IMG/VR virus record: IMGVR_UViG_3300045988_138000
DNA: 64,000 nt
Strand: one strand, 5' to 3'
Origin: a virus
Positions 20,481 to 63,994 of this stretch are shown piece by piece. A program made the translations under genes and the position numbers. Within the stretch, counting starts at the first letter, position 1. The number at the start of each line of letters is the position of its first letter. Under the pieces are notes generated by a model. It did not search any database. It was not told where the DNA came from and saw only the letters and a list, made by a program, of their open reading frames with translations.

Positions 20481-23400
20481 TCAGAATGGTAGACCATTGT
20501 CTTCCATCTTGGGTACCTGTTCCGCCAGGTTACTGCCATTGTTGGCGTTCTGATTACCTGTTCTTCTGCCCTGTCGACGGGAAACGAAAGTCTTCCATCG
20601 TTCTTCCTCCTCGGTGGTGAGTGTGATGATGTTGCCATCGTCATCACGGTAAGGCAATGGGTCTGGTCCCTCGACATATTCTTTTGCCATCCGTTTCAGG
20701 TCATCGTAATTGTCGGGTATATGGTCTTTACCTGAACGGAAGAAGAAATACACGTGCTTGCTGGTTTCCACCTTTCGGATGTATTTCGGCTCTACGGTAT
20801 CGTCGTTCTCCCACTCCTTGCCGACGAAGTATTCCTTCGTTACCCATGCACGGAGCTTAAAGCATCCATGCCGCTTGTTGTCCTCGCTCACCAGAAGGTG
20901 TTCGGGATTCACAATGATATTCATGTTCTTGCAGTACTTGCGTATCTTCTTCTTGAAGGTGGCACGGCTATATTCCTTGCTCTTACCTTCGGAAGCATCC
21001 GCCCAATCGCGCATGAACTCATTAAACATCTCATCGGTACAGATAGGCGCGGCATACACCTCCTGCCGGGCAAAGAACCACTCAAAGTACTTCACGGAGT
21101 TCTCGGTCAGCTCTCTTACCATCAGTCGGCGCTGTACGTTCTTCTGCGGTGCGATGACGAACTCATGATATTTCATGATAAACTGCACGGACAAGGCACA
21201 GATGTATATCGCCTGGTTGCGGTCGTATTCATTCAACTGCTCGGGGTCAGTAGCGAGATTTTTCATGACCTCCTGTGGTGATCGGGCCAACTGATGCTGC
21301 ATGTGGTTCGCACGACAGAAGCGGTCGGATAAAGACACCAAGGGGAAACGTCCGATCGTCGACGAGTCATCATCACTCAACTGCGAATTGCTGGTAATCA
21401 CGTTGACAGGTGAGTCCTCCAACTTGAGTGTCACCGGGTCACCAAACTTTCGCTCTATCATCGCTCCTGCTGTAACCTTGTTGTAGAAGTACTTCATCGG
21501 GAATGAAGCAGGCTTATCTTCCCAATGTATCAACCTATACTTACCTGGATATATCAGGAGGTTGGAAAGACTGAACTGGGCATTATTGATAGTCGTAAAA
21601 TTCTTCATGTCGACACGCAGGACGTTGATAGCCGAAGCAACAAACGTGTTGACCAACAGCGATTTTCCAGAGCCGCCACTCGCCTCTTTCTCGTCTTCCA
21701 CCTGATCTTCCAAGAGGTAAGGACAGACACTCTGCATGTCCTTCCAGGAGCGATAGCAGATACGGCCAATGCAGGAAATCATGTTAGCGAAATGAGAATT
21801 GATGGTAGCCACTGCGGTGGAGTCCAATTCTTTCTTGTTGCGTATGGCATCCTGCTCCAGTCGCCATAATGTATTGGAACAGCCGCGTATGACTCGCAAT
21901 ACAGGCCACAGCTCTTTCTCCTGCTTGCCGTGCCAGTCAACTTGCCACCTGAAGGTCTGCGCCCATTCGCTTAACTCAACGCGCATCTGCGTGATTTCCT
22001 CGTTGCTGAAAACAGGCGATCCGTCCTCATTGCGCATGACCGCCTTTTGGTCAATAGCACTTTTGCGGTCGAGATATTCCTGACTCTCACTGATGGTGAA
22101 AGGCGCATGAAACACCCTCATCGTGAAGTCGTAAGGCTTCTTTGCCAAAGCTGGGATGAAGAAGTTGATATGGTCGTAACTGACAGGAGTGATGGCCTCC
22201 GGCGTGATTTTCAATGCCACGTTGCGGAAGAAGAAATATTCCATCCGCTCATTGAAAGACTCGTTGAAGTCAATGACCATCGACTGCAAACCTCCAGCCG
22301 ATTTCTCTGAGAAGTTTTTGTCGATAAGGTTGGCTGCATCCGACATCATGCGCTGTTCCTCATCGTTATATCGCCAACTTTGCTCGATAAACTCAAGGAG
22401 TTTGGTCTTCACAGCCTGGATAATGCTCTTCGAGTCGATATACTCTACGAAGCATCGGTCAAGGTGTATGAATTGGCCCACGAGGTCGGTGCTCTCAGGG
22501 TCTATCATTCGATAATAGCCTAACGAGGTCATAAAAAGCCACACCTTTGTAGGACTTACCTTACAGGTCGGTGGCTTGGGCTTACCGCTTCTTGGGTCAC
22601 GGGGATATTCTATCTCGAAAGGGTCGGTATTGTTGGCACCGCGCAATTTTGAATACAGAGGCAAACGAATATCATGATCGAAACGGAAATTATCTGCATC
22701 GGTCATGCGAAACGTCAACATATAATCGCGTACACTACGAGGGGAACAGCCATAGAGCCACTGCCATCGCTGGTTATATCTCACCCTGAAAGCATCAGGC
22801 AACATCGCATAACAAAGATCGCTATACTTGGTGGCAATAGCACCGCAGTCGCGCTGACTGCTGATGTCGTTAGGGTATAGCATGATGATTTTTTCGGCGA
22901 AACGCTTCATCTTCTGGTACTGCACAGCGTTGAAGTCCAGTTTCTCCTGTCGCCACTGACCGCGGTCGATATACCAGAAGTTTCTTCTTCCTACTGAGAA
23001 GGCTACATGATACCAGCATTTCTGCTGAAAATGAGTGTCGCCATCTTTATCCTTACGAAGGGACCGCATGGCATAATAGATGCTGATTGCATCCTCGGGA
23101 GTCCGGCAGAAAATGATGTTCTGCGCCTTGATGGCTGCTGCCGGAATTTCTTCGTCTTCCTGGTGGAAAGTACCTTTTGGCGTACCGTCCTTCAATTCAT
23201 TCTCCACCCATATTTTTTTGTTTTCGGTGTAGACTTCATCGGGCTGCCACTTACTGATGGCAGCATGGACGCCCGTCGTGTTGGAGTCACGATGGTCCAT
23301 GGCGTAAGTGAACACCTTGTCGCCCATCAGCCACCGGCTTACTTTTTTGACGGAGTGCTCTTCGGTAGTGGAAAAGACGATGGGGGACTGCTGCATGGCA

Positions 23401-24161
23401 GGACGGAAAAGGCAACCGCAAGAGCCCTGCGGCGCAATCACATCAGTAGCAAAACAGACAAAGAGGGGATTCCATGGCGTGCCATAAATAACCTCGCTTA
23501 CCTGCTTGCCATCTCTTACGGCATTAGGTAATGTCACTTGGTCAACCGCATAGATACGAAAATCGTCATTCAACATCTTTGTGTTGAAATCCCGACCGAA
23601 ACCGAAAGAAGGCAAGCCTTTTACCATTGTCACCTCGCAGCCCAAAGCAGCCAGTTCCTGTGGATTAAAATCAACCTTTGGGATAAAAGAAAAGGTGTCA
23701 ATATTCTGCACGGCAATGGTGCGATAGTCCATCTTGGAGAAGAGCATAGGATATTTCGCCCTCACGTTCTCAGCATCGCCGTACACTCTTACCACAAGAT
23801 CGTGGCAAAGACGGAGCAGACTGGCTCCGTGCATAGGCAGATTGCGCATGGCAGCATATAGTTCCAGGGCTCCATATCCATGTTTGCCGGTCTTGGTACA
23901 CATCCACCTCACGGCACCATGCTCTGCCTGTCTGTCATCATCCACCCCTACACCATTATAGAGACCACCTCGCTCGTCCTTATAAATAATAAGGTGCGGT
24001 GTCTGTTTCGCTTTGCTTCCGGCATCGTCATTAGCTGCCTCCTTCTGGCAGAAGGGACAGAAACAAGCTGTCTGTCCCTCGATACACTGGTTCTCGGCAG
24101 GCTTCACGAGAAAAGTCATGTCGAGATTGGCAAGCTGGTTGATGATAGGATGAAATAACAT
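20481..24161 (-). CDS. primase-helicase-like replication protein
   Basis: 1226 aa. The N-terminal zinc-finger-like CFCPFCQ...WMCTKTGKHGYGALELY resembles the DnaG CHC2 type. There is a central P-loop, EASGGSGKSLLVN. Confidence 0.7.
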   Translation of the reverse strand: MLFHPIINQLANLDMTFLVKPAENQCIEGQTACFCPFCQKEAANDDAGSKAKQTPHLIIYKDERGGLYNGVGVDDDRQAEHGAVRWMCTKTGKHGYGALELYAAMRNLPMHGASLLRLCHDLVVRVYGDAENVRAKYPMLFSKMDYRTIAVQNIDTFSFIPKVDFNPQELAALGCEVTMVKGLPSFGFGRDFNTKMLNDDFRIYAVDQVTLPNAVRDGKQVSEVIYGTPWNPLFVCFATDVIAPQGSCGCLFRPAMQQSPIVFSTTEEHSVKKVSRWLMGDKVFTYAMDHRDSNTTGVHAAISKWQPDEVYTENKKIWVENELKDGTPKGTFHQEDEEIPAAAIKAQNIIFCRTPEDAISIYYAMRSLRKDKDGDTHFQQKCWYHVAFSVGRRNFWYIDRGQWRQEKLDFNAVQYQKMKRFAEKIIMLYPNDISSQRDCGAIATKYSDLCYAMLPDAFRVRYNQRWQWLYGCSPRSVRDYMLTFRMTDADNFRFDHDIRLPLYSKLRGANNTDPFEIEYPRDPRSGKPKPPTCKVSPTKVWLFMTSLGYYRMIDPESTDLVGQFIHLDRCFVEYIDSKSIIQAVKTKLLEFIEQSWRYNDEEQRMMSDAANLIDKNFSEKSAGGLQSMVIDFNESFNERMEYFFFRNVALKITPEAITPVSYDHINFFIPALAKKPYDFTMRVFHAPFTISESQEYLDRKSAIDQKAVMRNEDGSPVFSNEEITQMRVELSEWAQTFRWQVDWHGKQEKELWPVLRVIRGCSNTLWRLEQDAIRNKKELDSTAVATINSHFANMISCIGRICYRSWKDMQSVCPYLLEDQVEDEKEASGGSGKSLLVNTFVASAINVLRVDMKNFTTINNAQFSLSNLLIYPGKYRLIHWEDKPASFPMKYFYNKVTAGAMIERKFGDPVTLKLEDSPVNVITSNSQLSDDDSSTIGRFPLVSLSDRFCRANHMQHQLARSPQEVMKNLATDPEQLNEYDRNQAIYICALSVQFIMKYHEFVIAPQKNVQRRLMVRELTENSVKYFEWFFARQEVYAAPICTDEMFNEFMRDWADASEGKSKEYSRATFKKKIRKYCKNMNIIVNPEHLLVSEDNKRHGCFKLRAWVTKEYFVGKEWENDDTVEPKYIRKVETSKHVYFFFRSGKDHIPDNYDDLKRMAKEYVEGPDPLPYRDDDGNIITLTTEEEERWKTFVSRRQGRRTGNQNANNGSNLAEQVPKMEDNGLPF

Positions 24162-28992: not shown

Positions 28993-29030
28993 CTAAAACA
29001 CCGCCTACCCTATGGAATGGGTAAGCGGTG
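28993..29030 (-). terminator. intrinsic terminator after the Rep-like gene
   Basis: On the minus strand, caccgcttaccc-attccata-gggtaggcggtg (a 12-bp stem with one mismatch) is followed by TTTT. Confidence 0.65.
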
Positions 29031-29036
29031 TAATAA

Positions 29037-30182
29037 TCATTTATCCGATAAAGAATAATTCCAATTAACTATCTTGCCAAATACTTTGACGGAGCATTTT
29101 TTTACGTGCTTAATAACATCGTCGGTTAGACAACTCTCTACCCTTTCGCATTGCTCCCGACTTGCCTTTAAAAGTATAGTCTTTCCATCGTAGGACATAA
29201 ACCCAACCTTTCGCAGTTCGTCACCAGCCTCTCCATCAAGCATAGATAAGAGCTGCTGCCACTCTCTCTCCCCTGGCTGCTCATCAGCAAAGAGCAACGT
29301 CTGTTCCTTGGGCGCTGTCGCCTTCATCATCTCCTCGAAAGTATCGTAAACATTAAACTCGATAAAAGCAGGATTACCTACCTTGCGCTTACCATTGTAG
29401 ACAGGTTCATACGACACGCAAACGTCGAGTTGACCCATCTGCTTCAGTCGGTTTATATCGGCAATGCTATTGTCGAGTACATTCTTCTTGAATTGCGAAA
29501 ACTTAGGATAGGTCTCTTTCACAATTTCCGTACCACTAAATTCAAGCATACCTAAATACTTCTTGATTTTACTGACCGTAAGCCGGATTTTGCGCTCTTT
29601 CCAGTTATTGCCGCTTGCATCGCGCAGAATGTAATATATCATTGGCATACGCGCCACCTCACCAATCAAAGCAATGTTATCAGGATGTGACACATATCCC
29701 TCGGTCATATTGAAGGCATAGTCCAATACATAAAGGTGTTTGTCGGGATCTATCACTTGCGGGTTAAGCCCAAAAACAACTCCCGTGTTCTTAATAGACG
29801 TTTCGCCACTCAGAAAAACATTATACATGTGCATACCCCATGTACCATCCTCATTCTTCTTCGGACCTTCCACCTTTACGTCCAACACTTCTTTCATCGC
29901 TTGCTTCACGGCAAAGAAATTGTTTTCTGGTACACCTAACTCAGCATAGGAGATGTATATCTGGGTGACACCCGAATTTTTCACTGCCTCGGAGAACAGG
30001 GATTTGGGTACCTTGCGCGACTTAGCCAAATCTGAACCAAAGAACTCTTTTATGAAGGGCTGCAACTGCTCACTCACCTTCACCAGCACCGCCTGCTGCA
30101 ACAGCGACAGGTTCTTGCTCAACCTGGTGAAGGCAAAAGGCGTATTTATCCACTTTTGCGGTAATCGTTTCTCGTTTTCCAT
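29037..30182 (-). CDS. plasmid-type replication initiator (Rep-like)
   Basis: 381 aa, directly downstream of an iteron and AT-rich field. The N-terminal FAFTRLSKNLSLLQQAVLVKVSEQL resembles the Rep_3-type pattern. The call rests mainly on context. Confidence 0.5.
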   Translation of the reverse strand: MENEKRLPQKWINTPFAFTRLSKNLSLLQQAVLVKVSEQLQPFIKEFFGSDLAKSRKVPKSLFSEAVKNSGVTQIYISYAELGVPENNFFAVKQAMKEVLDVKVEGPKKNEDGTWGMHMYNVFLSGETSIKNTGVVFGLNPQVIDPDKHLYVLDYAFNMTEGYVSHPDNIALIGEVARMPMIYYILRDASGNNWKERKIRLTVSKIKKYLGMLEFSGTEIVKETYPKFSQFKKNVLDNSIADINRLKQMGQLDVCVSYEPVYNGKRKVGNPAFIEFNVYDTFEEMMKATAPKEQTLLFADEQPGEREWQQLLSMLDGEAGDELRKVGFMSYDGKTILLKASREQCERVESCLTDDVIKHVKKCSVKVFGKIVNWNYSLSDK

Positions 30183-30198
30183 ATCGTTTCCTTTCCTT

Positions 30199-30570
30199 TG
30201 AGGTAAAAAGTTACTAAATCTTTTTACCTATTTACTATTTCGTTTTACCTATTTACTAACTATTTTTCTTTACCTTGTACTTAAATCACTGAAAATCAGT
30301 AATTTCTCATAAACTCCTATAATATAGATAAGAAGAAACATATTTTTTCTTTATATATATATTTTAATAGTAAGGTAAAAATATTTAGTATATAGGTAAA
30401 AAGATTTAGTAAGATTTTACCTTATCGTCACCTTTCGAGTAAAGCAATTTAGTACTTCACATTTAAGGTAAAAAGATTTAGTAAAATTTTACCTTATCGT
30501 CACCTTATGGGTAAAGCGATTTTTCTTTCTTATGTTTGAGGTAAAAAGATTTAGTAAGATTTTACCTTAA
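30199..30570. repeat. iteron field / candidate oriV
   Basis: aggtaaaaagatttagtaaRattttaccttatcgtcacctt occurs at 30394, 30466 and 30539 (spacing 72-73 bp). A degenerate copy lies at 30372 and an inverted copy within the palindrome 30201-30229. TTTTACCTATTTACTA occurs twice. An AT-rich block lies at 30300-30370. Confidence 0.75.
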
Positions 30571-30923
30571 CCTTGAGAATATCTGTCGATAAACTCTATC
30601 ACTCCCTGGGCAGCCAGTTCCTGAAGCGTCTTACCCGTACATTCCTTCAGACGAGCCAAGCGGAAATAATAATCCATGGGGATTGTTACCTTTACACTTT
30701 TCTCTGTCTTTAAAGGTTGCATGGATAATGACTGTTGCGCTTCGGCTGTTGGCTGTTGGCTGCCAGTGGAAGAGGTGGTGGTAGCACTACCGCTCGCCGT
30801 ACCCGTTGAAGGCATAAAAAATGCCGACTGTTGCGAGGTCTGTCCTTGCTCGTATATTCCTTCTATTTTATCCATTGCGTCTGATTTATTCAAACCGAAT
30901 TTTTTTACATTTGGTCTTGCCAT
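30567..30923 (-). CDS. ParG-like ribbon-helix-helix partition/centromere-binding protein (candidate)
   Basis: 118 aa immediately downstream of parA. A disordered S/T/Q-rich N-terminal half is followed by KVTIPMDYYFRLARLKECTGKTLQELAAQGVIEFI, which is RHH-like. Confidence 0.45.
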   Translation of the reverse strand: MARPNVKKFGLNKSDAMDKIEGIYEQGQTSQQSAFFMPSTGTASGSATTTSSTGSQQPTAEAQQSLSMQPLKTEKSVKVTIPMDYYFRLARLKECTGKTLQELAAQGVIEFIDRYSQG

Positions 30924-30980
30924 AATATTCTATTGATTAAAAGTCCTCAATTATTTGTATGAAATTATAACATGAGCTGC

Positions 30981-31853
30981 CTACTGAGGCATACTCTCTA
31001 AGATTTCTTTCGTAAATCGCTCATAGTCCTGCCCTACCCTGCAGTAAGGTGCATAAGAAAAAATGTCGGTACCCATCGCCTGAGCTTCCACCATCTTGGT
31101 ATCTCTGCGGGTATATGAATCGAACACGTAGTCATCGAACTTCTCGCTCAGATATTCCTTGAACTGACGCGTCGCCTTGGTCTGGTCATTACTCATCACC
31201 TCCAACAGTCCACGAATATCCAGGTCCTCATTCAGGTCTTCCCTGGTCTCTATCACGGCATTGGTGATTTCTGCAATACCCTTTGTGGCCAACACTTCCA
31301 ACTGGACGGGGATAACGACACTCGATGCCGCCGCCAGCGCATTATAGGTAAGCAGCGACATGGCTGGAGGGCAGTCTATCAATACGTAGTCGAAGGCATC
31401 CAGGATGCTGCTTACGCCCTCGTCTGCGAGTTCTGTGCCCTGCATCTCCTGTAATGGCTTCAATAGGATTTTACGAAGGGCCTTGCGAGGCACCGCCATC
31501 TGGTTAAGAAAGGGCTCGATGCTGACCATCTTCTGTGAGGCCGGAGCGAGGTAGATACCTTCCTGCATCTTATATACGGGCAGGGAGGTCTGGTTGATAA
31601 GAGCATCGTAGGTGGTAGGCTTATTGTCGCTGTTCACCTGGTCCCAACCGAAAAGGAAAGACAGACTGACCTGTGGGTCGAGGTCTACGAGTAAGATACG
31701 TGGCTTTCGCTCCTTTCCGTCTGCACCCTTTCCGAAGTACCCTTTACCGAAGCGACGCAGCCCTGTTGCTAAACTCTGTACCGTTGTGGTCTTGCCTACT
31801 CCACCTTTATGATTCACGAAGGCGAGTATTTCTTTCAATCTTGTTTCTGCCAT
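30981..31853 (-). CDS. parA: ParA-family partition ATPase
   Basis: Deviant Walker A, VNHKGGVGKTTT. Also LLVDLDPQ and IDCPP. Confidence 0.85.
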   Translation of the reverse strand: MAETRLKEILAFVNHKGGVGKTTTVQSLATGLRRFGKGYFGKGADGKERKPRILLVDLDPQVSLSFLFGWDQVNSDNKPTTYDALINQTSLPVYKMQEGIYLAPASQKMVSIEPFLNQMAVPRKALRKILLKPLQEMQGTELADEGVSSILDAFDYVLIDCPPAMSLLTYNALAAASSVVIPVQLEVLATKGIAEITNAVIETREDLNEDLDIRGLLEVMSNDQTKATRQFKEYLSEKFDDYVFDSYTRRDTKMVEAQAMGTDIFSYAPYCRVGQDYERFTKEILESMPQ

Positions 31854-31904
31854 AATCTTTTTATTTAATGAATAATCTATTCGATAATGCTATAATGTGT
31901 AACC

Positions 31905-32450
31905 AAATACACCGAAGTACATAAGTACATTAGTACTAAAGTACGAACCTACGTATCTACGTACCTACATACGTACCTATGATTTTTCATACGTGCAAAG
32001 ATACAACTAAAAAACATAACTACCAACTATTTTCCGTTTTATATTTTAAATATTAAGTATTTTTATAGGTTCGCATCTATGAACGAATGAAAATATGAAC
32101 GTAGATACCTATCAGCATACGAACCCACGTACCTACGTGCGAATAAACGTATGAACCTACGTACCTACGTGCATACGAAAGTGCATAAGTACGTAGGTGC
32201 AAAGATACGAAAGTACGAATGCGTGGAAGTTTGGACGTATCGAAGTGGAAAGGAGTGGACGTTGAAAGGTGCAATCGTATAAAGTACTAAAGTACTAAAG
32301 TGCAATAATATTAAAGTATAATGGTGTATTTGCATAAAAGTACAAAAGTACAATAGTTTTAAAGTGTAATTGTGTAAACGTATAAAAGTACTAAAGTACT
32401 AAAATACAATAACACAAAAGTACAATGGTGCAAAAGTATAAAAGCGCAAT
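31905..32450. repeat. GTAC-rich short direct repeats (centromere/operator candidate)
   Basis: About 17 GTAC cores sit within AAGTAC(T/A)A and ACCTACGTA units, for example aaagtactaaagtactaaagtgc at 32281 and acgtacctacgtgc twice. The region lies directly upstream of parA. Confidence 0.7.
31996..32027 (-). promoter_or_regulatory. Bacteroidota-type promoter for the par operon (TTG-N20-TATCTTTG)
   Basis: On the plus strand, caaagata lies at 31996-32003 and caac at 32024-32027. The GTGCAAAGATAC box recurs at 32197-32208. Confidence 0.45.
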
Positions 32451-32459
32451 GGTCATCGC

Positions 32460-32660
32460 CATTAGGGGTAACAGCCATCAGTAGCACGCCCTGTAAGGGC
32501 AGAAGCTCTTAGCCCAGGGTAACACCCTGGGTATAATGGCAAAAAGCAATGCGCCCTGTAAGGGCAAAAGCTTTATACATTGCCAGGAGATTTTAAGCTT
32601 TTGCCCTTACAGGGCGACAGGTTACCGCATAAAATAACCCAGGGCGTGCTGGGGGAACTC
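32460..32660. repeat. cluster of GC-rich hairpin repeats downstream of the lipoprotein gene
   Basis: cccagggtaacaccctggg lies at 32513-32531. Perfect 22-bp arms cgccctgtaagggcaaaagctt / aagcttttgcccttacagggcg lie at 32552-32573 and 32595-32616. A related agccatcagYagcacgccctRtaagggc also occurs at 16370-16400. Confidence 0.8.
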
Positions 32661-36657: not shown

Positions 36658-36743
36658 AATCTGTCGTTTTTTTACTTTTTGTTTTGAAATCAGCAAGAAG
36701 GCTCTTTTTACCTTTTTACTTTTTTACTTTTTTACCTTTAAAA

Positions 36744-36968
36744 TTACCTTTCCACCATTCTCAGCTCCGCACCAAGTGCTCCTGCAATCTTGTTGAGTAC
36801 GTCGATATTGACGGCATACTTGCCGGCTTCCACACTGCGAATGTTTGAAATAGAGATGCCCGCAATCTTGGCGAGCTGCTCTTGCTCCCAACCCTGGGCG
36901 GTACGCATCGCGCGGATGCTCTCGCCCATGGCCTTACGCTTGTCATAAATGATTTGGTCTTTTTCCAT
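36744..36968 (-). CDS. XRE-family HTH transcriptional regulator
   Basis: GESIRAMRTAQGWEQEQLAKIAGISISNIRSVEAGKYAVNIDVLNKIAGALG is a classic HTH_3 pattern. Confidence 0.75.
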   Translation of the reverse strand: MEKDQIIYDKRKAMGESIRAMRTAQGWEQEQLAKIAGISISNIRSVEAGKYAVNIDVLNKIAGALGAELRMVER

Positions 36969-45848: not shown

Positions 45849-45913
45849 AATCTATAAGCCGAATTGCTGTTGCCGCCAGATCTAAATTGTTATTTGTTTC
45901 TTATTTTCGTTTG

Positions 45914-45945
45914 CAAAATTACTATATACATTTGAAATAGCCAAA
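45914..45945 (-). promoter_or_regulatory. Bacteroidota-type promoter (TTTG-N20-TAATTTTG) inside a duplicated about 97-nt module
   Basis: On the plus strand, caaaatta lies at 45914-45921 and caaa at 45942-45945. The module at 45890-45986 is about 80 percent identical to 48246-48342. Confidence 0.6.
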
Positions 45946-46160
45946 TATTTAAATTAAAAAGTTATCAAATACATTTATTTTTAACGTTTATACACAATTA
46001 TATGTATTTGTAATAGGTATTATTTACATTTGTTTACAATTCCCTGATCTCTGTGATATGCTATAAAGTCTATAACGAGCTGCCAGGAGTGGGGGCACCG
46101 CTGCAAAATCTCTAAAATCTGTGATATACTATAATATGTATAACGTAACAAAGTGGGCAC

Positions 46161-46588
46161 CATTGAGGCGCACCAGGAACGGCGCAACGGTGCAACGGGC
46201 AACACTCCACACCTGGCAGCATCGAGGCACCAGGACGGCGCAAAATGGTGCAACGGACAACACTCCACGCCTGGCAGCATCGAGGCACACCAGGAAGGCG
46301 CAAATGGCACGGCGGCAATACTCCACACCTGGCAGCATTGAGGCGCCAGGAACGGCGCAAAAGGGCACGGCGGCAATACGTCCACACCTGGCAGCATCGA
46401 GGCGCACCAGGAACGGCGCAAAGGGTGCACGGGTAACACTCCACACCTGGCAGCATTGAGGCGCACCAGGAAGGCGCAAATGGCACGGCGGCAATACTCC
46501 ACACCTGGCAGCATTGAGGCGCACCAGGAAGGCGCAAATGGCACGGCGGCAATACTCCACACCTGGCAGCATTGAGGCGCACCAGGAA
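46161..46588. repeat. GC-rich tandem repeat array 1 (58-59-nt unit, about 7.5 copies)
   Basis: The unit is ctccacacctggcagcattgaggcgcaccaggaaggcgcaaatggcacggcggcaata. Copies start at 46205, 46263, 46321, 46380, 46439, 46497 and 46555. There are 15 CCWGG sites. Confidence 0.9.
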
Positions 46589-46590
46589 CG

Positions 46591-48302: not shown

Positions 48303-48430
48303 TTTTTCGATTAAAAAGTTATCAAATGTATTTATTTTTAACCTCCTTAAACAAATATATATGATTTGTTTACACTTATTTGCAAATAGATATAATTGCA
48401 TACCTTATTATATATAGGGTCGTTGCGGTT

Positions 48431-48878
48431 CTGGTGGCTGGTGGCTCCCTGGTGGCCGCCTCCCTGGTTCCAGTGGTGGAGGTGCCTCCCTGGTGGCTGG
48501 TGCCTCCCTGGTGGCTGCCTTCCTGGTGGTGCTGGTGGCCGCCTCCCTGGTTCCAGTGGTGGAGGTGCCTCCCTTGGTGGCTGGTGGCTCCCTGGTGGCC
48601 GCCTTCCTGGTGGTGTTGGTGGTGCCTCCCTGGTTCCAGTGGTGGAGGTGCCTCCCTGGTGGCTGCCTTCCTGGTGGTGCTGGTGGTGCCTCCCTGGTTC
48701 CAGTGGTGGAGGTGCCTCCCTTGGTGGCTGGTGTCCTCGTGGCTGGTGGCTGCCTTCCTGGTGGTGTTGGTGGTGCCTCCCTGGTTCCAGTGGTGGAGGT
48801 GCCTCCCTTGGTGGCTGGTGTCCTCGTGGCTGGTGGCTGCCTTCCTGGTGGTGCTGGTGGTGCCTCCCTGGTTCCTCG
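48431..48878. repeat. GC-rich composite tandem repeat array 2
   Basis: The core ctggttccagtggtggaggtgcctccc starts at 48464, 48547, 48630, 48684 and 48781, with a partial copy at 48868. Variable ggtggctg/cttcctggtggtg blocks lie in between. There are 16 CCTGG sites, all in the same orientation. Confidence 0.9.
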
Positions 48879-49224
48879 CCCGCATATTCACAGCCGGACA
48901 CGCGGGCGGGGGCACGCAAGGCTCCTCAGTGCGGCGGCGCTCTCGCTTGTGAATCGAAGTTGCAAGGAAAGTTTGCTGGATGCGATTGCTCTAATTATCA
49001 ATTATTTAGGTTTTCCTTTCGGGATGGCTTTTACAGGTTGGCTTTTCTGTTAAGCCTTTGATTATTAACTATTTATAGGGGCGAAAGAATAATTCAGATA
49101 CAACAAAACAGATTATATACCTCTCTTTTTTTACAAAAAAATACAAAAGAAAACGCTGCAAACAGATAAAACTATACTCTTTTGAACAGAAATAAACGTA
49201 TATAATAATTATTTTTCAGAAAAA

Positions 49225-49281: not shown

Positions 49282-49575
49282 ATGAGAACGAAAATTGACA
49301 TTCGTCGCGCCATAAAAGAGCGCGGTTACACCATTACGTCTTTCTGTCAGAAGTTCGACCTAAAGACGCAGAACATCATTCAGAATTACATCAAAGGAAA
49401 CCCTACAATAAAACGTTTGGAGGACCTTTGCGAGAAACTGGATTGCGACATCACTGATTTGTTCTATCCAATAGGCGATTCGAGCGATGCACAGCCTACT
49501 ATCAACACCACCGCCTTCTGTCCTCATTGTGGTGCAAAGGTTCGTGTCGGTGTGATGCTCCTGCCCGAAGAATAA
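49282..49575 (+). CDS. HTH (XRE-like) regulator with a C-terminal zinc-ribbon-like CxxC
   Basis: IRRAIKERGYTITSFCQKFDLKTQNIIQNYIKGNPTIKRLEDLCEKLDCDITDLF, followed by FCPHCGAKV. Confidence 0.7.
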   Translation: MRTKIDIRRAIKERGYTITSFCQKFDLKTQNIIQNYIKGNPTIKRLEDLCEKLDCDITDLFYPIGDSSDAQPTINTTAFCPHCGAKVRVGVMLLPEE

Positions 49576-49610
49576 AAAATCCCACGGCAAGCCGTGTGCC
49601 TACCGTGGGA
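49574..49610 (-). terminator. intrinsic terminator (minus sense; also closes the plus-strand HTH gene)
   Basis: tcccacgg-N15-ccgtggga, followed on the minus strand by T6. Confidence 0.7.
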
Positions 49611-49641
49611 AATGTTAAGGCCTTTGTGTGCAAGCCAGCCT

Positions 49642-50079
49642 TTAAGACTCCAGCTCGCCGCCAGGCTTCTGACCGCCGCCTTCAGTTGTGGAGCCGCCTG
49701 GCTTCACGCCACCCGTGAGGTCGTTGCCGGCAAGGATGACCTTGAGGTCGTCGGTGACGAGGGAGCGCATGAAGCTGTAGGGGTTGCCGATCTTGTGCTG
49801 CGCCTTGTAGGCCTTCATCACGGCGAGGTAAGCCTCCGTGCCCTTCGCCGACGTTGCCGACGGGCGGTTCTGCTTCCACCAAGAGGAGGCAAATTACGAT
49901 TTCTTCGTAAACGAAGATTTCACCGTCTGCTGTTTCTCACTGTTCGGCTGCACGCATCCGTGATAGCCAGCCGAATACATCTTACCCGTGCGCTTGTTGA
50001 CACCAATGTAAGTGGTGTCCTTCTTGCACAGTTTGCCACTGATTGAACTAATCAAATGGCTGGGTGTAATTTTTGCCAT
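49642..50079 (-). CDS. hypothetical protein, 145 codons with one in-frame TAA (codon 62)
   Basis: Own translation: MAKITPSHLISSISGKL...QQTVKSSFTKKS*FASSWWKQNRPSATSAKGTEAYLAVMKAYKAQHKIGNPYSFMRSLVTDDLKVILAGNDLTGG...ELES*. The terminator follows 30 nt after the second stop. Confidence 0.45.
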
Positions 50080-50135
50080 AGTTGCAATAGAATTACGTGA
50101 AACATTGCCCCTAAAAGGGGGCGTTAATTAACTCA

Positions 50136-50180
50136 GAGCAAGTACTACGAAAGTACTATGAAAGTACTACGACGTTGCTC
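50136..50180. repeat. three tandem AAGTACTAYGA units flanked by the inverted gagcaa/ttgctc
   Basis: gagcaagtactacgaaagtactatgaaagtactacgacgttgctc has the same AAGTACTA core as the repeats upstream of parA. Confidence 0.8.
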
Positions 50181-50257
50181 ATAGTGTAAAGGTACAAAAA
50201 ACGTGCGTGAAACATCGGACATAAAAAATAATTACTAACTAAAATAACAGATTTATT

Positions 50258-50842
50258 ATGAAGAAAATTTTCAGTTTTTTGCTCATGTTAGCCATGATGC
50301 TTGCCATGGGCGAGAGTGTAGCGAGTTGTAGCAGTAGCAGTGACGATGAAGGTGGGGAGAATAAACCTCCAAAAGAAGAGTATGTCGCAAAAGAAAGCAA
50401 ATTTTGCGATGCCTTGAGAAAATTCAAGGTATCAGGGTTTGACTACTATCAATACCAATATGTCAGTAAATTCTCGCTGCATAGCGAGGCTCGCAGTGGA
50501 AGAGATGCCACCGACAGATGGGAGATTGGAATGTATATAGCAAACGACCCAGGTTTGGATAAGTGGGACGGCACATACCAGTTAGACCAACTTTGGGGTA
50601 CGCTCTACGGCTTTGAAAATGGGTACGAGGTGACAAAAGCATATTTAGGTACAGCAGATACTCTCCCAGTGAAAGGAGCATGGATAAAATTCACCTACTT
50701 GCACAAAAACGACAAATACGGCAATAAAATATACACCATAGAGTTGCATATCGACGAAATGAAGGAGAAAAACGGAGACTACGCACGCGACATCAACATC
50801 ACATACACGGGTTCGATTAGCGGCGGCATGATAGAATATTAA
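50258..50842 (+). CDS. lipoprotein (opposite-strand cargo gene)
   Basis: Signal plus lipobox, MKKIFSFLLMLAMMLAMGESVASC, followed by an SSSSDDEGG linker. Confidence 0.7.
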   Translation: MKKIFSFLLMLAMMLAMGESVASCSSSSDDEGGENKPPKEEYVAKESKFCDALRKFKVSGFDYYQYQYVSKFSLHSEARSGRDATDRWEIGMYIANDPGLDKWDGTYQLDQLWGTLYGFENGYEVTKAYLGTADTLPVKGAWIKFTYLHKNDKYGNKIYTIELHIDEMKEKNGDYARDINITYTGSISGGMIEY

Positions 50843-59952: not shown

Positions 59953-60201
59953 CTAAGACATTTTTTTCTCTACGATAGCTGTCACATCAGACACAAGTTG
60001 TAAGTCTTTTGCCTCTTCGGGCGAAATCTTGATATGGAACATGGTTTCGGTCTGAAGAACGAGATCGAGAAAGTCGATAGACTCAAGAGCGAGATCATCA
60101 CGCAGGTTAGAGCTGTCGGTCACTTCTGCTGTCGATGCCCAAGGTGTGCGCAGGCCTTCAACTATATTGAACACCCGCTGGCGAATATCTTCTTTGTTCA
60201 T
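59953..60201 (-). CDS. acyl carrier protein
   Basis: 82 aa. LRDDLALESIDFLDLVLQTETMF matches the ACP DLGLDSLD..EL..E.E.F pattern, with the Ser attachment site. Confidence 0.8.
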   Translation of the reverse strand: MNKEDIRQRVFNIVEGLRTPWASTAEVTDSSNLRDDLALESIDFLDLVLQTETMFHIKISPEEAKDLQLVSDVTAIVEKKMS

Positions 60202-61412
60202 AATGATTGGAATTTAGAAATGATGAATGACGAGTTGGTGCCTCCGAAGCCAAAGGCATTACAAAGAATATGGTGTGATAAGTACTCGCGTGACTGCATG
60301 ACGAGATTGAGCTTAGGAAAAGCATTCTCGGCTGTGGTAGCCGCACCGAAGATAGTGTCTGTGTTGAGCATCATGGCGGCTTGAACGGCCTGCGATACAC
60401 CAGCCATCCAGCACTCGTGACCCGTCATACCCTTGGTGGCTACGATATAAGGGCTCTCGGGGAACACCTTTCCGATGGCTTCTGCCTCTGCAGCATCGCC
60501 CTGCTCCGTACCTGTGGCATGGGCGAGGAGTACATCTATCATTCCGGCATCGAGTCCAGCCGACTCTATGGCCTTAATCATTGCCACCTCTTCCTGATAA
60601 GCATCCGGGGTACAGATGCTGGTGCCATTAGTGGAAAAGCCGTAGCCTGAAAGTTCTGCCACGGGCGAGACTTCATAATCCTCAAAACGCAAGCTGTCGG
60701 AAGGCTCAAGAATGACACAGGCTGCACCACCCGAAGGAGCAAGACCATTGCGGGCTTTGCCGAAAGGCTGCACCTTGTCGGGCGAGAAAACGCCCATGGC
60801 ATCAAACGACAGCATGGAGAAGGGACCAGTCTCCTGTGCTCCAACGACAATCACCATGTCGGTTTGGCGCGCATCAAGAAGCATCTTGGCAAGACCGATG
60901 GCATGACCTCCTCCGGCACAAGCCCCGCTGACGGTAAGCGAGAGTCCTTTCAGTCCGTAGATAGAGGCGAGGCTCATGCTGACGGTGGAATTGAGTGTGC
61001 GGAACACTGCACCTGCCCCTAAACGTCGGGTGTCGCGCTGTGTAATGGCAGTGGTCATTGCCTGATAGTTGTCTCCCGCCGTAGAGTCGTTGCTGACGAT
61101 GACCGATACATTGTGAGACTGCAAGAACTCGGGAAGAATATTGGCTTCCACCAGAGCCTCGTTGACGGCAGATAAGGAATATAGGGTCGGTTCGGAAAGA
61201 CATTGCCGTTGACCCCTGGTGAGTTTTGAAAACTTCCAAGGGTTCGGATCATTTATCTTTCCGCACAGGTCGGACTGATAACCTTTCTCGCTGCGCGCGG
61301 GGTCGTGGTGCAGACCGCACTCTCCATACGCCAGCTTCTGTGCGACGGAAAAGGTATCGTTGCCAAGACTGGAAACAATACCTGTGCCTGTGATTAATAT
61401 TTTTCTATCCAT
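60198..61412 (-). CDS. beta-ketoacyl-ACP synthase (KAS I/II, FabF/FabB-like)
   Basis: Trimmed to the ATG at 61412 (MDRKILITGTGIVS...). The catalytic Cys lies in VSGACAGGGHAIG. The His motifs are LLAHATGT and KGMTGHECWMAG. The C-terminus contains NAFGFGGTNSS. Confidence 0.85.
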   Translation of the reverse strand: MDRKILITGTGIVSSLGNDTFSVAQKLAYGECGLHHDPARSEKGYQSDLCGKINDPNPWKFSKLTRGQRQCLSEPTLYSLSAVNEALVEANILPEFLQSHNVSVIVSNDSTAGDNYQAMTTAITQRDTRRLGAGAVFRTLNSTVSMSLASIYGLKGLSLTVSGACAGGGHAIGLAKMLLDARQTDMVIVVGAQETGPFSMLSFDAMGVFSPDKVQPFGKARNGLAPSGGAACVILEPSDSLRFEDYEVSPVAELSGYGFSTNGTSICTPDAYQEEVAMIKAIESAGLDAGMIDVLLAHATGTEQGDAAEAEAIGKVFPESPYIVATKGMTGHECWMAGVSQAVQAAMMLNTDTIFGAATTAENAFPKLNLVMQSREYLSHHILCNAFGFGGTNSSFIISKFQSL

Positions 61413-61441
61413 GATTATGTTTGTTTGATTAAAGAATACTC

Positions 61442-63994
61442 TTACAAGGCATAGACGGTCAGTTCTACCTCTCCAATGCCTTCCTTGGCCGTGATAGTTG
61501 TATTCACCTTGTCGATAAGACATTTCACACCTCCGATGTTCCACCACGTCTTCCAGTGGTTAGGTATGTCGGCTATCTGTGCGACAGAAGCCGAACAGCG
61601 GATGATGTACTTCTTGCGGTTAAGCAGGAAATAGGCGTAGGGCAGAATGAAGGTATCGAAAAGACCGCGTGAGCGTATCTTGGTTATCACATTGCCGTTA
61701 GTGTCCACCTCGTCGGGGGCGCAGAGTGAAACATCCTTATATTCAGGCTTACTGAGCCATGACGGCTCTTTGAAAGCACGTATCTTGAGCGAGAAACGTT
61801 CACCTTTGCCTCTGCCTTCCTGAATACCATTATAGTCGAAGACATTGCCCATCATGTCAATAGAGTCGCAAGCAAGAGCATATTCGCCTGCTGCCGTGCG
61901 CCACTTGGAAGTACCGAAGTGGTCGTAGTTATAGTCATAGGGCTCTGTAGTTGCATTCGTACCGCCGCCTCGCATCATGGCCAAGGCAAAGCCCCATCGT
62001 GAATCGTCTTGAAGAGGCGAGTTGCCGTCTTCGGTGTTTGACGGGTCGTAGCTCTCGACGAGTTTCAACGACTGCTGCATATAGAAGTCGCAGAAAGGCG
62101 AGGAGATGGTCTGGTTGATGATTTGCTCGACAAACTCATGCTCCATGTCCTCATCGACATAGGCGCAGAGGATAGGCTGTCCTTCCTTGATAACGACACC
62201 ATAGGTTGTTGTCTTTGAATCGTCATAGTACTTTGCCGTATGAGAGCCGTAAGCAGCCTCTATCTCCTTGAAATAGTTGACATCATTGAACGGCACGGGG
62301 GTGAAGTCGATGGTGATGTCGTGGATGAAGTCTTCATTCTCCTCGCTGCAATCGCCATACTCCACACCCTTGTACTGGCCTACCTCGAAAAGCACAGGCT
62401 TGAGGTCGGCTGTAGTAGTGGCGTCGCCATTCACCTTCACGCGATAGGCATTGCCCGTCTTCGGGTCGATGTAGCATCTTTTATCGCCAGAACTTAAATT
62501 ATGAAAGAAGTCAACGTAATCTCGATCGTAAACCGTTTCGTTGTCTCCACTTCCCGGTTCGGGATAGTCGATATAGTCGTAGTCGGTAGCATAGCCCATA
62601 TTTTTATTCTTGCGGCTGTCCTTGACGTTCTGCTGCTGATCCTTGGCATCGCTCTCTTCGGAGTATCGCATACGTACACCCGTTATCTTCTCGCTGACGG
62701 GAATGATAGAATGAACGTCTGCGCGAAACGTGCGTGCTGGCTGTCCACTCTCGCGAAGCACGTCACGGATGAGGTAGGCCGTGACTTTCTTTTGCTCATA
62801 GTCGTAGGAAAACTTGATGCCGAAGGCGCTCTCCAAGGATGAGATAATCGTGCTGACACTCTCATCGGGGAAGTTGTCGCTGTTGGCCACCATATAGAGC
62901 ACGTTGGCCTGCACGTTGAACTTAGAGATTTGCGCCTCGATGCTGATACCTGTCACCTTTCCGCCCTCTTTTGTCGTCTCTCCCACCTGTATGTGTTCGG
63001 AAGTTCCTTCGTTAGTGGTAAGGGTGAGCTCGTTGACCGTCTTGTCCTCTGCCTTTACGATGTTGATTTTTCCACCACAACCGCGCGACTCCAACCAGGA
63101 GTTGATATGATCTTGCTTCTTGAAATATCCTTCCTTAATCTCGCCTGCCTTCTTTTTCTTGGCGATGACTTCGGGGTCTTTATCCTCATAGTATGTTCCG
63201 TGATGTGGATGCTCTTTGGTGTCGTAGGCGCAAACGGTGGTGAAGAAACAGAGGTGCTTCATATCCTCTATCTGCATCAGTGCCGACTTGTCGAAGGTGA
63301 CACCCAGGTGAGCAAACAGGCAGTCGAGAAAATAGAGTACATAGAAACAGATGCCCGACTGCGGACGGCGTGCGTCCAACACCCAATAGGGATAAAGATC
63401 CTCGTTGGTCCACTTGCAGTCCTTCGTGCTGATAACGTCGCTCGATGTGGTGCCATCGTCAGCAAGTCCGTGGTGCTTGTAGCAGATACGGGCGTTGCAA
63501 TAAGCTGCCGGACGGCCTGCGCCATCTGTCTCGCCATAGGCTGCCGACGTGTTGATATAGTCGCCATTCTTGGCGATGGCGGGCTCGTTGACTGTATTTC
63601 CGTTGGGGTAGGCTCGTGACGACTTTCTCTTAGCGTCGGCCTTCATGTGTAAAGGATAAAGGATATTGGTGGTGTACTCCTGGCACGATGCAGGATAGGA
63701 GAAGCCAAGAGCCTGCGGTTCGAGCACTTTACTTACACTTACGTGCTCGGCATGAATGGTTCGGGTGACAGTCTCATCATCCTTATGCTTTCCTCCCTCC
63801 ACAAACACACTGACATTTACAACAGGGTCGCTCTCGATGTCTACCCTTACGTTGCCTATCTTCTCGCCGATGATCAGTTCATCCTTGATGGGGATGTCAC
63901 GACAGTTGAGCGAACCGATGAGGTCGCTGAAACTCTGTCTGCCTGCATTAATACTCATAGAGAGCGAGTCTTTTATCTCTTCAGCATCCTGCAT
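61442..63994 (-). CDS. large virion/baseplate-type hypothetical protein
   Basis: 850-aa ORF with an ATG at 63994. It lies directly upstream of the KAS gene on the same strand. Confidence 0.6.
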   Translation of the reverse strand: MQDAEEIKDSLSMSINAGRQSFSDLIGSLNCRDIPIKDELIIGEKIGNVRVDIESDPVVNVSVFVEGGKHKDDETVTRTIHAEHVSVSKVLEPQALGFSYPASCQEYTTNILYPLHMKADAKRKSSRAYPNGNTVNEPAIAKNGDYINTSAAYGETDGAGRPAAYCNARICYKHHGLADDGTTSSDVISTKDCKWTNEDLYPYWVLDARRPQSGICFYVLYFLDCLFAHLGVTFDKSALMQIEDMKHLCFFTTVCAYDTKEHPHHGTYYEDKDPEVIAKKKKAGEIKEGYFKKQDHINSWLESRGCGGKINIVKAEDKTVNELTLTTNEGTSEHIQVGETTKEGGKVTGISIEAQISKFNVQANVLYMVANSDNFPDESVSTIISSLESAFGIKFSYDYEQKKVTAYLIRDVLRESGQPARTFRADVHSIIPVSEKITGVRMRYSEESDAKDQQQNVKDSRKNKNMGYATDYDYIDYPEPGSGDNETVYDRDYVDFFHNLSSGDKRCYIDPKTGNAYRVKVNGDATTTADLKPVLFEVGQYKGVEYGDCSEENEDFIHDITIDFTPVPFNDVNYFKEIEAAYGSHTAKYYDDSKTTTYGVVIKEGQPILCAYVDEDMEHEFVEQIINQTISSPFCDFYMQQSLKLVESYDPSNTEDGNSPLQDDSRWGFALAMMRGGGTNATTEPYDYNYDHFGTSKWRTAAGEYALACDSIDMMGNVFDYNGIQEGRGKGERFSLKIRAFKEPSWLSKPEYKDVSLCAPDEVDTNGNVITKIRSRGLFDTFILPYAYFLLNRKKYIIRCSASVAQIADIPNHWKTWWNIGGVKCLIDKVNTTITAKEGIGEVELTVYAL

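Follow-up and report, generated by a model that had tools for sequence, protein, structure and literature searches.

Organization of the cassette

The DNA analysed here is a 64,000-nt stretch of the virus record IMGVR_UViG_3300045988_138000 (the window in the following), and the element in question is a cassette of about 3.5 kb on its minus strand, running from 32452 to 28998. In this direction, an 8-bp repeat field with a promoter is followed by the gene of a ParA ATPase, a 118-aa open reading frame (ORF), iterons with an AT-rich spacer, the gene of a replication initiator (Rep) and a terminator. The carrier of the cassette is a tailed phage of about 103 kb (102,713 bp as closed sequence).

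An initial annotation, made from the nucleotide sequence by itself, had described this region as a complete plasmid-type maintenance module. It named a field of about 550 bp of GTAC-containing short repeats with an embedded TTG-N20 promoter, a ParA with a deviant Walker A motif, a 118-aa protein of ribbon-helix-helix (RHH) or ParG type, an iteron and AT-rich field of about 370 bp, a Rep-like ORF, and a hairpin with a T-run as terminator. All of these elements were recovered at or close to their proposed places, each well beyond chance. The features are, in the order of the minus strand:

32270..32452, minus strand: array A, the distal repeat array, about 23 units with consensus CTTTnGTA (a GTAC box and a T-rich spacer)
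32085..32262, minus strand: array B, about 22 units with consensus ACnTnCGT; candidate centromere/operator
31996..32026, minus strand: promoter of the par operon, Bacteroidota-type, TTG-N20-TATCTTTG (TAnnTTTG -7 element), between arrays B and C
31905..31985, minus strand: array C, about 9 units of GTAGGTAC / GTACTTAT with consensus GTAnnTAC, the consecutive units at about 31976-31913, between the promoter and the parA start codon
30981..31853, minus strand: partition ATPase of the ParA family (290 aa) with a deviant Walker A motif, KGGVGKT, at residues 16-22
30567..30923, minus strand: conserved ORF of 118 aa, candidate centromere-binding adaptor
30373..30595, plus strand: distal set of iterons, with four AGGTAAAAAGATTTAGTAA copies in inverted orientation with respect to rep
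30268..30372, no strand: AT-rich spacer, 80% AT; candidate DNA-unwinding element
30201..30275, minus strand: proximal iterons, three direct copies with 21-25-bp spacing and one inverted half-site, directly upstream of the rep start codon
29037..30182, minus strand: replication initiator Rep, 381 aa, divergent member of the Rep_3 (WH1-WH2, iteron-binding) family
28998..29031, minus strand: intrinsic terminator-like hairpin of 13 pairs (8 G-C), followed by TTTAGT

Replication initiator and iterons

Profile searches gave a family to what had been called a Rep-like ORF. In the case of the window protein, the Pfam model Rep3_C (PF21205) is matched with 24.7 bits, above its gathering cut-off of 21.1 (E = 2.9e-5, residues 221-266). 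Within an alignment of the Rep family, Rep3_C is present in 7 of 9 members and Rep3_N (PF01051) in 3 of 9, with a best E-value of 1.3e-6, and the Rep profile matches R6K pi (2nra, E = 3e-4) in the same region as Rep3_C. Because of the Rep3_C and Rep3_N matches in the relatives, together with the profile match to R6K pi, we regard Rep as a divergent iteron initiator of the Rep_3 family. Among plasmid sequences, the closest relatives by tblastn are Reps from plasmids and large extrachromosomal elements of Segatella (E = 8e-32). The alignment with Segatella and Prevotella plasmid Reps extends over the full length, and these two genera supplied the only plasmid Rep matches. A tblastn search for Rep in deposited phages gave no match. 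On the 3' side of rep, the 13-pair stem at 29031-28998 with its T-run bears out the proposed terminator.

The gap between the 118-aa ORF and rep measures 384 bp. When the 19-mer AGGTAAAAAGATTTAGTAA was searched with up to three mismatches, all 6 matches fell within 30211-30557 and none elsewhere in the window, where 0.02 would be expected by chance; GGTAAA cores occur at 12 sites in both orientations. Three of the distal iterons are part of 72-73-bp repeat units, each with an inverted TTTTACC half-site, and the last of these units overlaps the 3' end of the adaptor gene. The iterons flank the AT-rich spacer on both sides. No other 100 nt of the window are as AT-rich as its core (30321-30420, 85% AT). 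The proximal iterons are candidates for the origin and for autorepression sites. Iteron positions are conserved in 12 relatives, and in a lineage with a 62% identical Rep most iteron copies share a changed core, GGTAAAAGACTTTAGTAA in place of GGTAAAAAGATTTAGTAA.

Two further repeat regions of the window deserve mention beside the iterons. A tandem array of 4.5 copies of CTTTTTAC is found at 36704-36739; its reverse complement GTAAAAAG resembles the iteron core, and these copies may be extra binding sites of Rep or the adaptor. The region 45881-46590 contains a 58-bp unit repeated 7.4 times (46156-46590). In minus-strand direction a stretch with 84% AT comes next, near 45.9 kb, and holds a DnaA-box-like TTATACACA (45988-45996) and a -7 box, TAATTTTG. 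This region resembles a second origin or a regulatory region, and by coordinate mapping the IMG/VR contig 155282 breaks nearby.

Partition genes and the 8-bp repeat field

The ParA protein carries the predicted KGGVGKT motif and matches the Pfam families AAA_31 (1.1e-34) and CbiA (5.5e-10). The NCBIfam model ParA_partition is matched at 5e-21 with 75 bits, which is under the curated cut-off of 180 of that model. Since the Walker A motif begins at residue 16, the protein is without an N-terminal helix-turn-helix (HTH) or other DNA-binding extension, as in type Ib. With 290 aa it is longer than the approximately 200-230 aa of type Ib ATPases, and it has internal insertions relative to the ParA of the Segatella copri plasmid. 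The ParA of the S. copri DSM 18205 plasmid is 43% identical (E = 4e-79), and when the 5,000 best-scoring PLSDB records are compared, four Segatella replicons give the best four ParA matches (40-43% identity). The 118-aa ORF lies 57 bp downstream of parA and the repeat array lies in cis upstream. Judged from this arrangement, an adaptor gene downstream and a repeat array as candidate centromere, the locus has a type Ib-like partition layout.

Three parts make up the 118-aa protein: an N-terminal tail that is basic and conserved, a linker rich in Q/S/T whose length varies, and a C-terminal domain of 47 residues. In an alignment of 18 relatives this domain, with a strand-like segment, a helix, a G-K-T turn and a second helix, is almost invariant. 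The AlphaFold2 (AF2) model places, with moderate confidence, helices at 83-96 and 100-115 (predicted local distance difference test, pLDDT, of 72-80), preceded by VKVTIPM and joined by G-K-T, and its N-terminus is disordered. One relative is labelled ‘Ribbon-helix-helix domain’ in a third-party annotation record of nr. Pfam gave no match with E < 0.1, phmmer and hmmsearch profile searches of the PDB gave no RHH match, and Foldseek against the PDB gave none at all. Thus, of the earlier assignment to the RHH/ParG type, the ORF stands as real and conserved, and its RHH/ParG character found no support from Pfam, PDB, Foldseek or hhalign. The succession of V-K-V-T-I, helix, G-K-T and helix is reminiscent of an RHH, and the protein looks like ParG in its architecture only.

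Upstream of parA, the repeat field at 31905-32452 is made of about 54 consecutive 8-bp units in the three arrays. GTAC occurs 17 times in 601 bp, i.e. 28 per kb compared to 2.95 per kb window-wide, and every spacing between these sites is a multiple of 4. Period-8 self-similarity reaches 0.497 in the field versus 0.264 +/- 0.032 for all 700-nt windows of the 64 kb, thus 7 standard deviations above background, and values above 0.40 are seen solely in 700-nt windows that overlap the field. The anticipated GTAC repeats are thus present. The promoter was located as TTG-N20-TATCTTTG at 32026-31996, and a second TATCTTTG box is found inside array B (32207-32200). The arrays differ in their conservation: the proximal part of array B (from about 32185 downward) is kept in 10 of 10 strains compared, and array A varies in length between strains; some with an identical Rep have a shorter version of it or none.

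Upstream of parA, the strongest period is 8 or a multiple of it (16, 24) in all 12 relatives, and this holds for the S. copri plasmid as well. In the examples examined, the sequence of the box shifts with the adaptor, being GTAC where the C-terminal domain is at least 68% identical and ATAA or AACA where that domain has diverged. Because the iterons and the 8-bp boxes co-vary in this manner, which is the strongest in-silico evidence on this point, both repeat sets are probably real binding arrays.

Just upstream of the field, at 32470-32660, there is a GC-rich palindromic element resembling a miniature inverted-repeat transposable element (MITE), with perfect inverted arms of 22 nt. It is a separate insertion, missing in 4 of 10 strains with identical Rep. 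The element is 86% identical to a sequence in the 167-kb replicon of S. copri DSM 18205 and also matches a faecal phage contig. As a further observation, AAGTACTACGA is repeated three times in tandem at 50140-50172; it contains GTAC boxes and may provide extra binding sites of Rep or the adaptor.

Relation to Segatella replicons and variation within the family

The plasmid character of the cassette, as proposed initially, is underlined by the Rep_3-family initiator and by the closest plasmid relatives of both Rep and ParA, which are Segatella extrachromosomal replicons. These replicons (NZ_CP085934.1, NZ_CP085933.1, NZ_CP137558.1 and NZ_CP137560.1) are plasmids or large extrachromosomal elements of the S. 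copri complex described by Blanco-Miguez et al. 2023 (PMC10635906). The 59-kb plasmid of S. copri DSM 18205 (NZ_CP085934.1) has the same order of ParA, a small ORF (99 aa), an iteron region of about 370 bp and Rep. Its six 22-bp iterons share with ours the GGTAAA core and a spacing of about 21-22 bp, and period 8 with its multiples (24, 16, 8) dominates upstream of its parA. As with ParA, the Reps of the Segatella replicons are homologous over their full length, with 27% identity to the window Rep. The Rep allele of one sibling phage comes closer, with 58% identity to the Rep of the DSM 18205 plasmid and 44% to those of the large extrachromosomal elements.

There are also differences. The small ORF of the DSM 18205 plasmid shows no detectable similarity to the 118-aa ORF, and the iteron sequences are not the same. 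Furthermore, the Segatella replicons carry ftsZ, smpB and transporters, i.e. housekeeping and metabolic genes, and no phage genes; the word ‘phage’ is absent from the paper describing the large extrachromosomal elements (PMC10635906).

Within the phage family the cassette is a constant. The ParA-adaptor-Rep trio keeps its order in all 12 lineages sampled, and in 10 of 10 relatives that could be mapped with their flanks it occupies one locus, with the ligase/lipoprotein side on one hand and the orf202-orf152-orf188/exonuclease side on the other. Relatives of Rep were found at 68 viral loci and those of ParA on 173 stretches. The alleles of Rep and ParA vary independently of the flanks and of each other, as a ligase of 78% identity can be accompanied by a Rep of 25% and a ParA of 78% by a Rep of 30%. 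Similarly, phages with 78% identical structural proteins have Reps of just 30% identity. A turnover of alleles like this would be anticipated for incompatibility determinants.

Altogether this suggests, as a tentative idea that we would sooner doubt than rely on, that one pool of ParA-adaptor-iteron-Rep cassettes serves both this phage family and the S. copri complex with its plasmids and large extrachromosomal elements, the alleles being swapped at the fixed phage locus. Which strains can be lysogenised would then depend on replicon incompatibility and on competition with the extrachromosomal elements of the host, and not just on receptors or integration sites.

Phage genes of the carrier

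That the carrier is a tailed phage is indicated by its tail, tail-fibre, head, protease and endolysin matches. Within the window these include a tail protein (phrog_3267, 2.3e-59), tail-fibre families and a minor head protein (5e-16). The regions beyond the window ends yielded a head maturation protease (phrog_53, 1.6e-29), an endolysin and a holin-like protein, besides a 1796-aa ORF and a conserved protein of 664 aa. Virion and lysis genes are thus found with ParA and Rep on one circularly closed sequence of 102.7 kb. IMG/VR has at least 140 stretches that encode relatives of the 938-aa structural protein; the contigs concerned reach about 110 kb, and the longer among them measure 87-110 kb.

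The initial annotation had placed a block of tail-fibre genes at 52.6-64 kb. Tail-fibre families are indeed present there, and the block is mixed, as it also holds genes for a beta-ketoacyl-acyl carrier protein (ACP) synthase and an ACP. These lie at 59953-61547 (minus strand), where the synthase (FabB/FabF-like, NCBIfam 1.8e-56) is directly followed, within the tail/structural block, by the 82-aa ACP, a PP-binding protein over the Pfam threshold.

A phage-style replication set had likewise been predicted. DnaN (TIGR00663, 6.9e-36), a NAD-ligase and a Rv2179c-like exonuclease agree with this prediction, and the assignment of a primase-helicase was left unconfirmed: for the candidate, an ORF of 1226 aa (20481-24161), just a sub-threshold DUF5906 match and a PHROG of unknown function were obtained. 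A DNA polymerase gene was not recognised in the genome of about 102.7 kb. Further genes comprise three YopX-domain paralogues, at least four DNA methyltransferases and a PAPS-reductase-like gene. Two proteins are XRE/CI-like HTH proteins (36744-36968 on the minus strand, and 49282-49575). The second one is the first gene of the only sizeable, divergently transcribed cluster (49282-50842, plus strand; phrog_8/3/4), which is preceded by an AT-rich intergenic region of about 360 bp. The two could possibly form a lysis-lysogeny switch.

We also considered that the element might be a large plasmid with phage-derived genes, such as a tailocin or a gene-transfer-agent-like system. The metabolic genes (the beta-ketoacyl-ACP synthase, the ACP and the PAPS-reductase-like gene) and the lack of a secure terminase and major capsid protein would fit this. 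What speaks against it are the matches to phrog_53, minor head protein, tail, tail fibre, endolysin and holin. In addition, a highly conserved 664-aa protein has a Walker A (RRVGKT) and a Walker B motif (VGDE) in a terminase-like arrangement, with a weak TerL match. Genome size stays tightly at 87-110 kb across lineages with just 45% protein identity, as expected for capsid packaging; the contigs are classified as viral in IMG/VR and no conjugation genes were seen in the element. Overall, this explanation is the least probable of those considered.

With regard to known groups, Flandersviridae or Crassvirales membership was ruled out by gene content. A megablast search of INPHARED with the module and with 40-64 kb found no nucleotide relatives in deposited phages, except for a 140-bp match of the MITE-like element. 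Separately, dense nested GC-rich tandem repeats with units of 18-151 bp (GGTGCCTCCCTGGTGG-like) occur at 48431-48875 in the ORF 48347-48919, where the local AT skew is -0.36.

Circular assembly and no sign of integration

To describe the genome beyond the window, exact-protein look-ups were combined with IMG/VR loci. This inventory covers nearly the whole genome; direct reading left out some 750 bp and the inner part of the 1796-aa ORF, and ORFs in 2 kb of the window (40.5-42.6 kb) were only partly scanned for families. On the genes called and covered by the precomputed annotation, almost all of them, no Pfam family of integrase, resolvase, recombinase or telomere-resolvase (protelomerase) was found, and none of about 60 PHROG-scanned ORFs belonged to an integrase family. 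The lack of an integrase noted earlier for the 64 kb thus extends to about 102.7 kb.

The size and ends of the assembled contigs are informative as well. The exact Rep protein was returned in 530 assembly blocks, the longest contigs being 102.7-113.9 kb and none exceeding 200 kb. Four other exact proteins of the window gave 44 to 211 blocks each, again with none on a contig above 200 kb, and no look-up or scan returned a contig above 118 kb. In GTDB, which holds one genome per species, 23 loci with relatives were all on contigs of at most 104 kb. Taking together about 1,100 assembly blocks (the sum over five protein look-ups, in which blocks may overlap) and the 23 genome loci, the search for host junctions suggested initially found none with host flanks or over phage size.

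An ordinary integrating temperate phage, with a recombinase that is too divergent or encoded in the few unscanned ORFs and with par and rep as accessories or remnants, is accordingly very improbable. Most ORFs are without a family assignment, and the incompletely read or scanned parts mentioned above leave some room for such a gene. Nevertheless, the Pfam integrase and resolvase models are sensitive and had zero matches on the covered genes, the PHROG scan was negative, and the contigs show no integrated form. Moreover, the cassette is intact, conserved in position and present family-wide, with Rep relatives at 68 loci and ParA relatives on 173 stretches. The contig data exclude integration as the usual state.

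Contigs of the family begin at different points of the same gene circle. In the MEGAHIT contig k119_219652 (102,832 bp), the last 119 nt are exactly the first 119 nt, 119 being the k-mer size, and the closed junction is 100% identical to the window (38288-37208) over 1,081 nt. Because of this end overlap, and because the window reads through the junction, the genome is a 102,713-bp circle or a circularly permuted molecule. The check for circular closure that had been proposed is thereby answered: the contig closes on itself.

As for the host, the initial annotation had pointed to Bacteroidota. The plasmid relatives of ParA and Rep and the GTDB loci narrow this to Segatella/Prevotellaceae: about half of the loci titles are Prevotella or Prevotellaceae of human gut and rumen, most others are Bacteroidales, and a few are Firmicutes bins. 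One of the 23 loci belongs to the isolate Prevotella sp. MGM1, whose assembly has a stand-alone contig of 90,283 bp (NZ_BEWV01000204.1) which encodes a 47%-identical relative of the 938-aa structural protein and ends in short GC-rich repeats; this contig was not among the loci returned by the Rep or ParA scans. In one strain (k119_55445, locus 205-1281), an IS110-family transposase is inserted upstream of a 205-aa gene and the contig breaks there; this IS110 had no match in PLSDB. The IS110 insertion of that strain, together with the MITE-like element in common with the S. copri replicon, argues for residence in cells.

A plasmid prophage as the probable state

From the sequence elements, the phage context, the lack of an integrase and the circular assembly we infer that the phage resides in cells as an episomal plasmid prophage. 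In our reading, to which we assign a probability of roughly 0.68, the cassette is a functional plasmid-type maintenance module and a fixed core part of a tailed-phage family of about 90-110 kb in Segatella/Prevotellaceae, the genome being inherited as a low-copy circular plasmid prophage, i.e. as a phage-plasmid. A new family of Prevotellaceae phage-plasmids is credible on these grounds. The extrachromosomal prophage predicted initially has gained from the cassette, the missing integrase and the closed 102.7-kb circle.

Several observations weigh against this interpretation. The evidence for the intracellular state is indirect throughout. The window Rep itself is over the Pfam threshold solely for WH2, without a Rep3_N match, and WH1 was matched just in relatives. 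The DnaA box TTATNCACA has two matches in the window (33751 and 45988) and none in the origin region, and a Bacteroidota -7 box was not found directly upstream of rep. In the case of the adaptor, hhalign against ParG (1p94) gave a probability of 0.2, hence no detectable similarity; its likeness to ParG is one of architecture and not of demonstrated homology, and the RHH fold is unproven. The identities of the terminase and of the major capsid protein are not secure: for the 664-aa protein phrog_2 was matched at 7.5e-4 only, no Pfam or PDB match was obtained, and the AF2 model with a pLDDT of 40.6 was unusable. The start of the IMG/VR contig 132745 recurs once as an internal repeat of 167 bp with 93% identity, which is not a terminal redundancy, and this contig consequently has no direct terminal repeat. 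Iteron-binding initiators also serve purely lytic replication in some phages, e.g. lambda O.

Finally, circular assembly, the absence of host junctions and phage-sized contigs are equally expected of a virulent phage with headful packaging, and circularity and contig data alone do not separate the latter from a plasmid prophage. The phage could accordingly be virulent or live in a carrier or pseudolysogenic state, with Rep and the iterons as its own lytic origin, and with ParA and the adaptor positioning or segregating genomes in a prolonged non-lysogenic infection. As neither a polymerase nor a second recognisable initiator was found, Rep may be the sole initiator. Persistence of Bacteroidota phages without classical integrative lysogeny has been discussed for Crassvirales (PMC10983915), and circles without demonstrated temperateness are found in Flandersviridae (PMC8008677). 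However, a ParA-adaptor-centromere system beside an iteron replicon is a hallmark of low-copy vertical inheritance, and here it is syntenic with the replicon of an S. copri plasmid. At their fixed locus, the alleles of Rep and ParA diversify and are exchanged in the manner of incompatibility determinants, insertion sequence and MITE insertions are present in some strains, and there are XRE repressor-like genes with a divergent cluster. The element has also been binned repeatedly with Prevotella metagenome-assembled genomes, and a relative is part of an isolate assembly. We therefore consider a purely virulent or carrier lifestyle to be unlikely, although it is to be taken seriously.

Comparison with known phages and partition systems

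In phage-plasmids, a P1-style iteron Rep next to a ParA operon is classical, and enterobacterial phage-plasmids of about 100 kb include the SSU5 group. The plasmid-maintenance region of P1 consists of repA, the oriR/incA iterons and parA-parB-parS. Phage P1 is comparable to the present element as a tailed phage of similar genome size that persists as a low-copy plasmid prophage, with an iteron initiator adjoining a ParA operon. In P1, the ParA is of type Ia and has an N-terminal HTH, ParB is large and parS is compact; the present element has instead a ParA without extension, the 118-aa adaptor and, as putative centromere, an upstream 8-bp array of about 540 bp. P1 also has Cre/lox and a separate lytic replicon (RepL), whereas no recombinase match was obtained here. 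The sequence relationship to P1 is no closer than family level.

The partition genes are more reminiscent of type Ib systems like ParF-ParG-parH of TP228 and delta-omega of pSM19035. Common to these are a small ParA without HTH, a small adaptor that combines a flexible N-terminal tail with a compact domain for DNA binding at its C-terminus, a role that is putative here, and a centromere of many short repeats upstream of the operon that overlaps the promoter. In parH, 4-bp boxes alternate with 4-bp spacers, which gives the same 8-bp period as in the present array. In contrast to these systems, the ParA of the element is longer than typical, its array is much longer, and its adaptor has no detectable sequence similarity to ParG.

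In Bacteroidota, a phage-plasmid lifestyle relying on RepL genes has been proposed for crAssphage (Carjivirus communis; PMC10983915). The statement of the initial annotation that well-studied phage-plasmids come mostly from Proteobacteria and Firmicutes is therefore to be qualified by this Bacteroidota case. Like the present element, crAssphage is abundant in the human gut, has a genome of about 100 kb and a Bacteroidota host and is without an integrase, and its persistence is attributed to a plasmid-like state. It differs in using RepL, and a term search of that report gave no passage describing a partition system (PMC10983915). The present element has Rep_3, iterons and ParA with a different virion module, and the two have no similarity. 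Flandersviridae are Bacteroidales phages that are often seen as closed circles in whole-community metagenomes; they are not shown to be temperate, and a P1-like persistence has been considered (PMC8008677). They encode PolA and DnaG, and no partition genes were found in them (PMC8008677), whereas the present element is without polymerase and has DnaN, ParA and Rep. A Segatella or Prevotella phage-plasmid was not found described in the searchable literature. As far as this literature shows, the host clade, the prevalence of the family and the exchangeable replicon pool that may be common with Segatella extrachromosomal elements are new.

Proposed mechanism

How the parts of the cassette might bind DNA, fire an origin and partition the genome can be outlined from their sequences. 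Injected DNA, circularly permuted or terminally redundant, would first circularise. The Rep_3-type initiator would bind the 19-21-bp iterons on either side of the 85% AT spacer and melt this spacer. Rep may then recruit the host helicase and Pol III, with the sliding clamp and NAD-ligase, and not the polymerase, being supplied by the phage. The iterons at the start of rep and the inverted distal set would allow autorepression and copy-number control via handcuffing, as in other iteron replicons.

For partition, the small adaptor is predicted to bind the array of about 54 8-bp units upstream of parA, forming the partition complex and repressing the embedded promoter. Its basic N-terminal tail would stimulate ParA-ATP on the nucleoid, whereby sister copies would be segregated. 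The XRE-type repressors (36744-36968 and 49282-49575) would keep the lytic genes off.

Significance

S. copri is among the most prevalent and health-associated gut taxa. Few genetic tools exist for it, and shuttle vectors for Segatella could draw on the 3.5-kb cassette as a candidate for replication and stability functions. Phage isolates for this species are few or lacking altogether (PMC11652159). The occurrence of the exact Rep in 530 assembly blocks, together with the at least 140 IMG/VR stretches, shows that the family is widespread.

If the plasmid-prophage interpretation is true, the element would be a second example of a Bacteroidota phage-plasmid and mechanistically unlike crAssphage, and phage biology would be tied to the recently described large extrachromosomal elements of Segatella. 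The interpretation of gut viromes would be affected too, as lifestyle calls based on integrase are expected to class such a phage as virulent. Under the more tentative idea of a shared cassette pool, the commonest Segatella phage of the human gut would be a plasmid prophage, which predictors of this type would probably miss.

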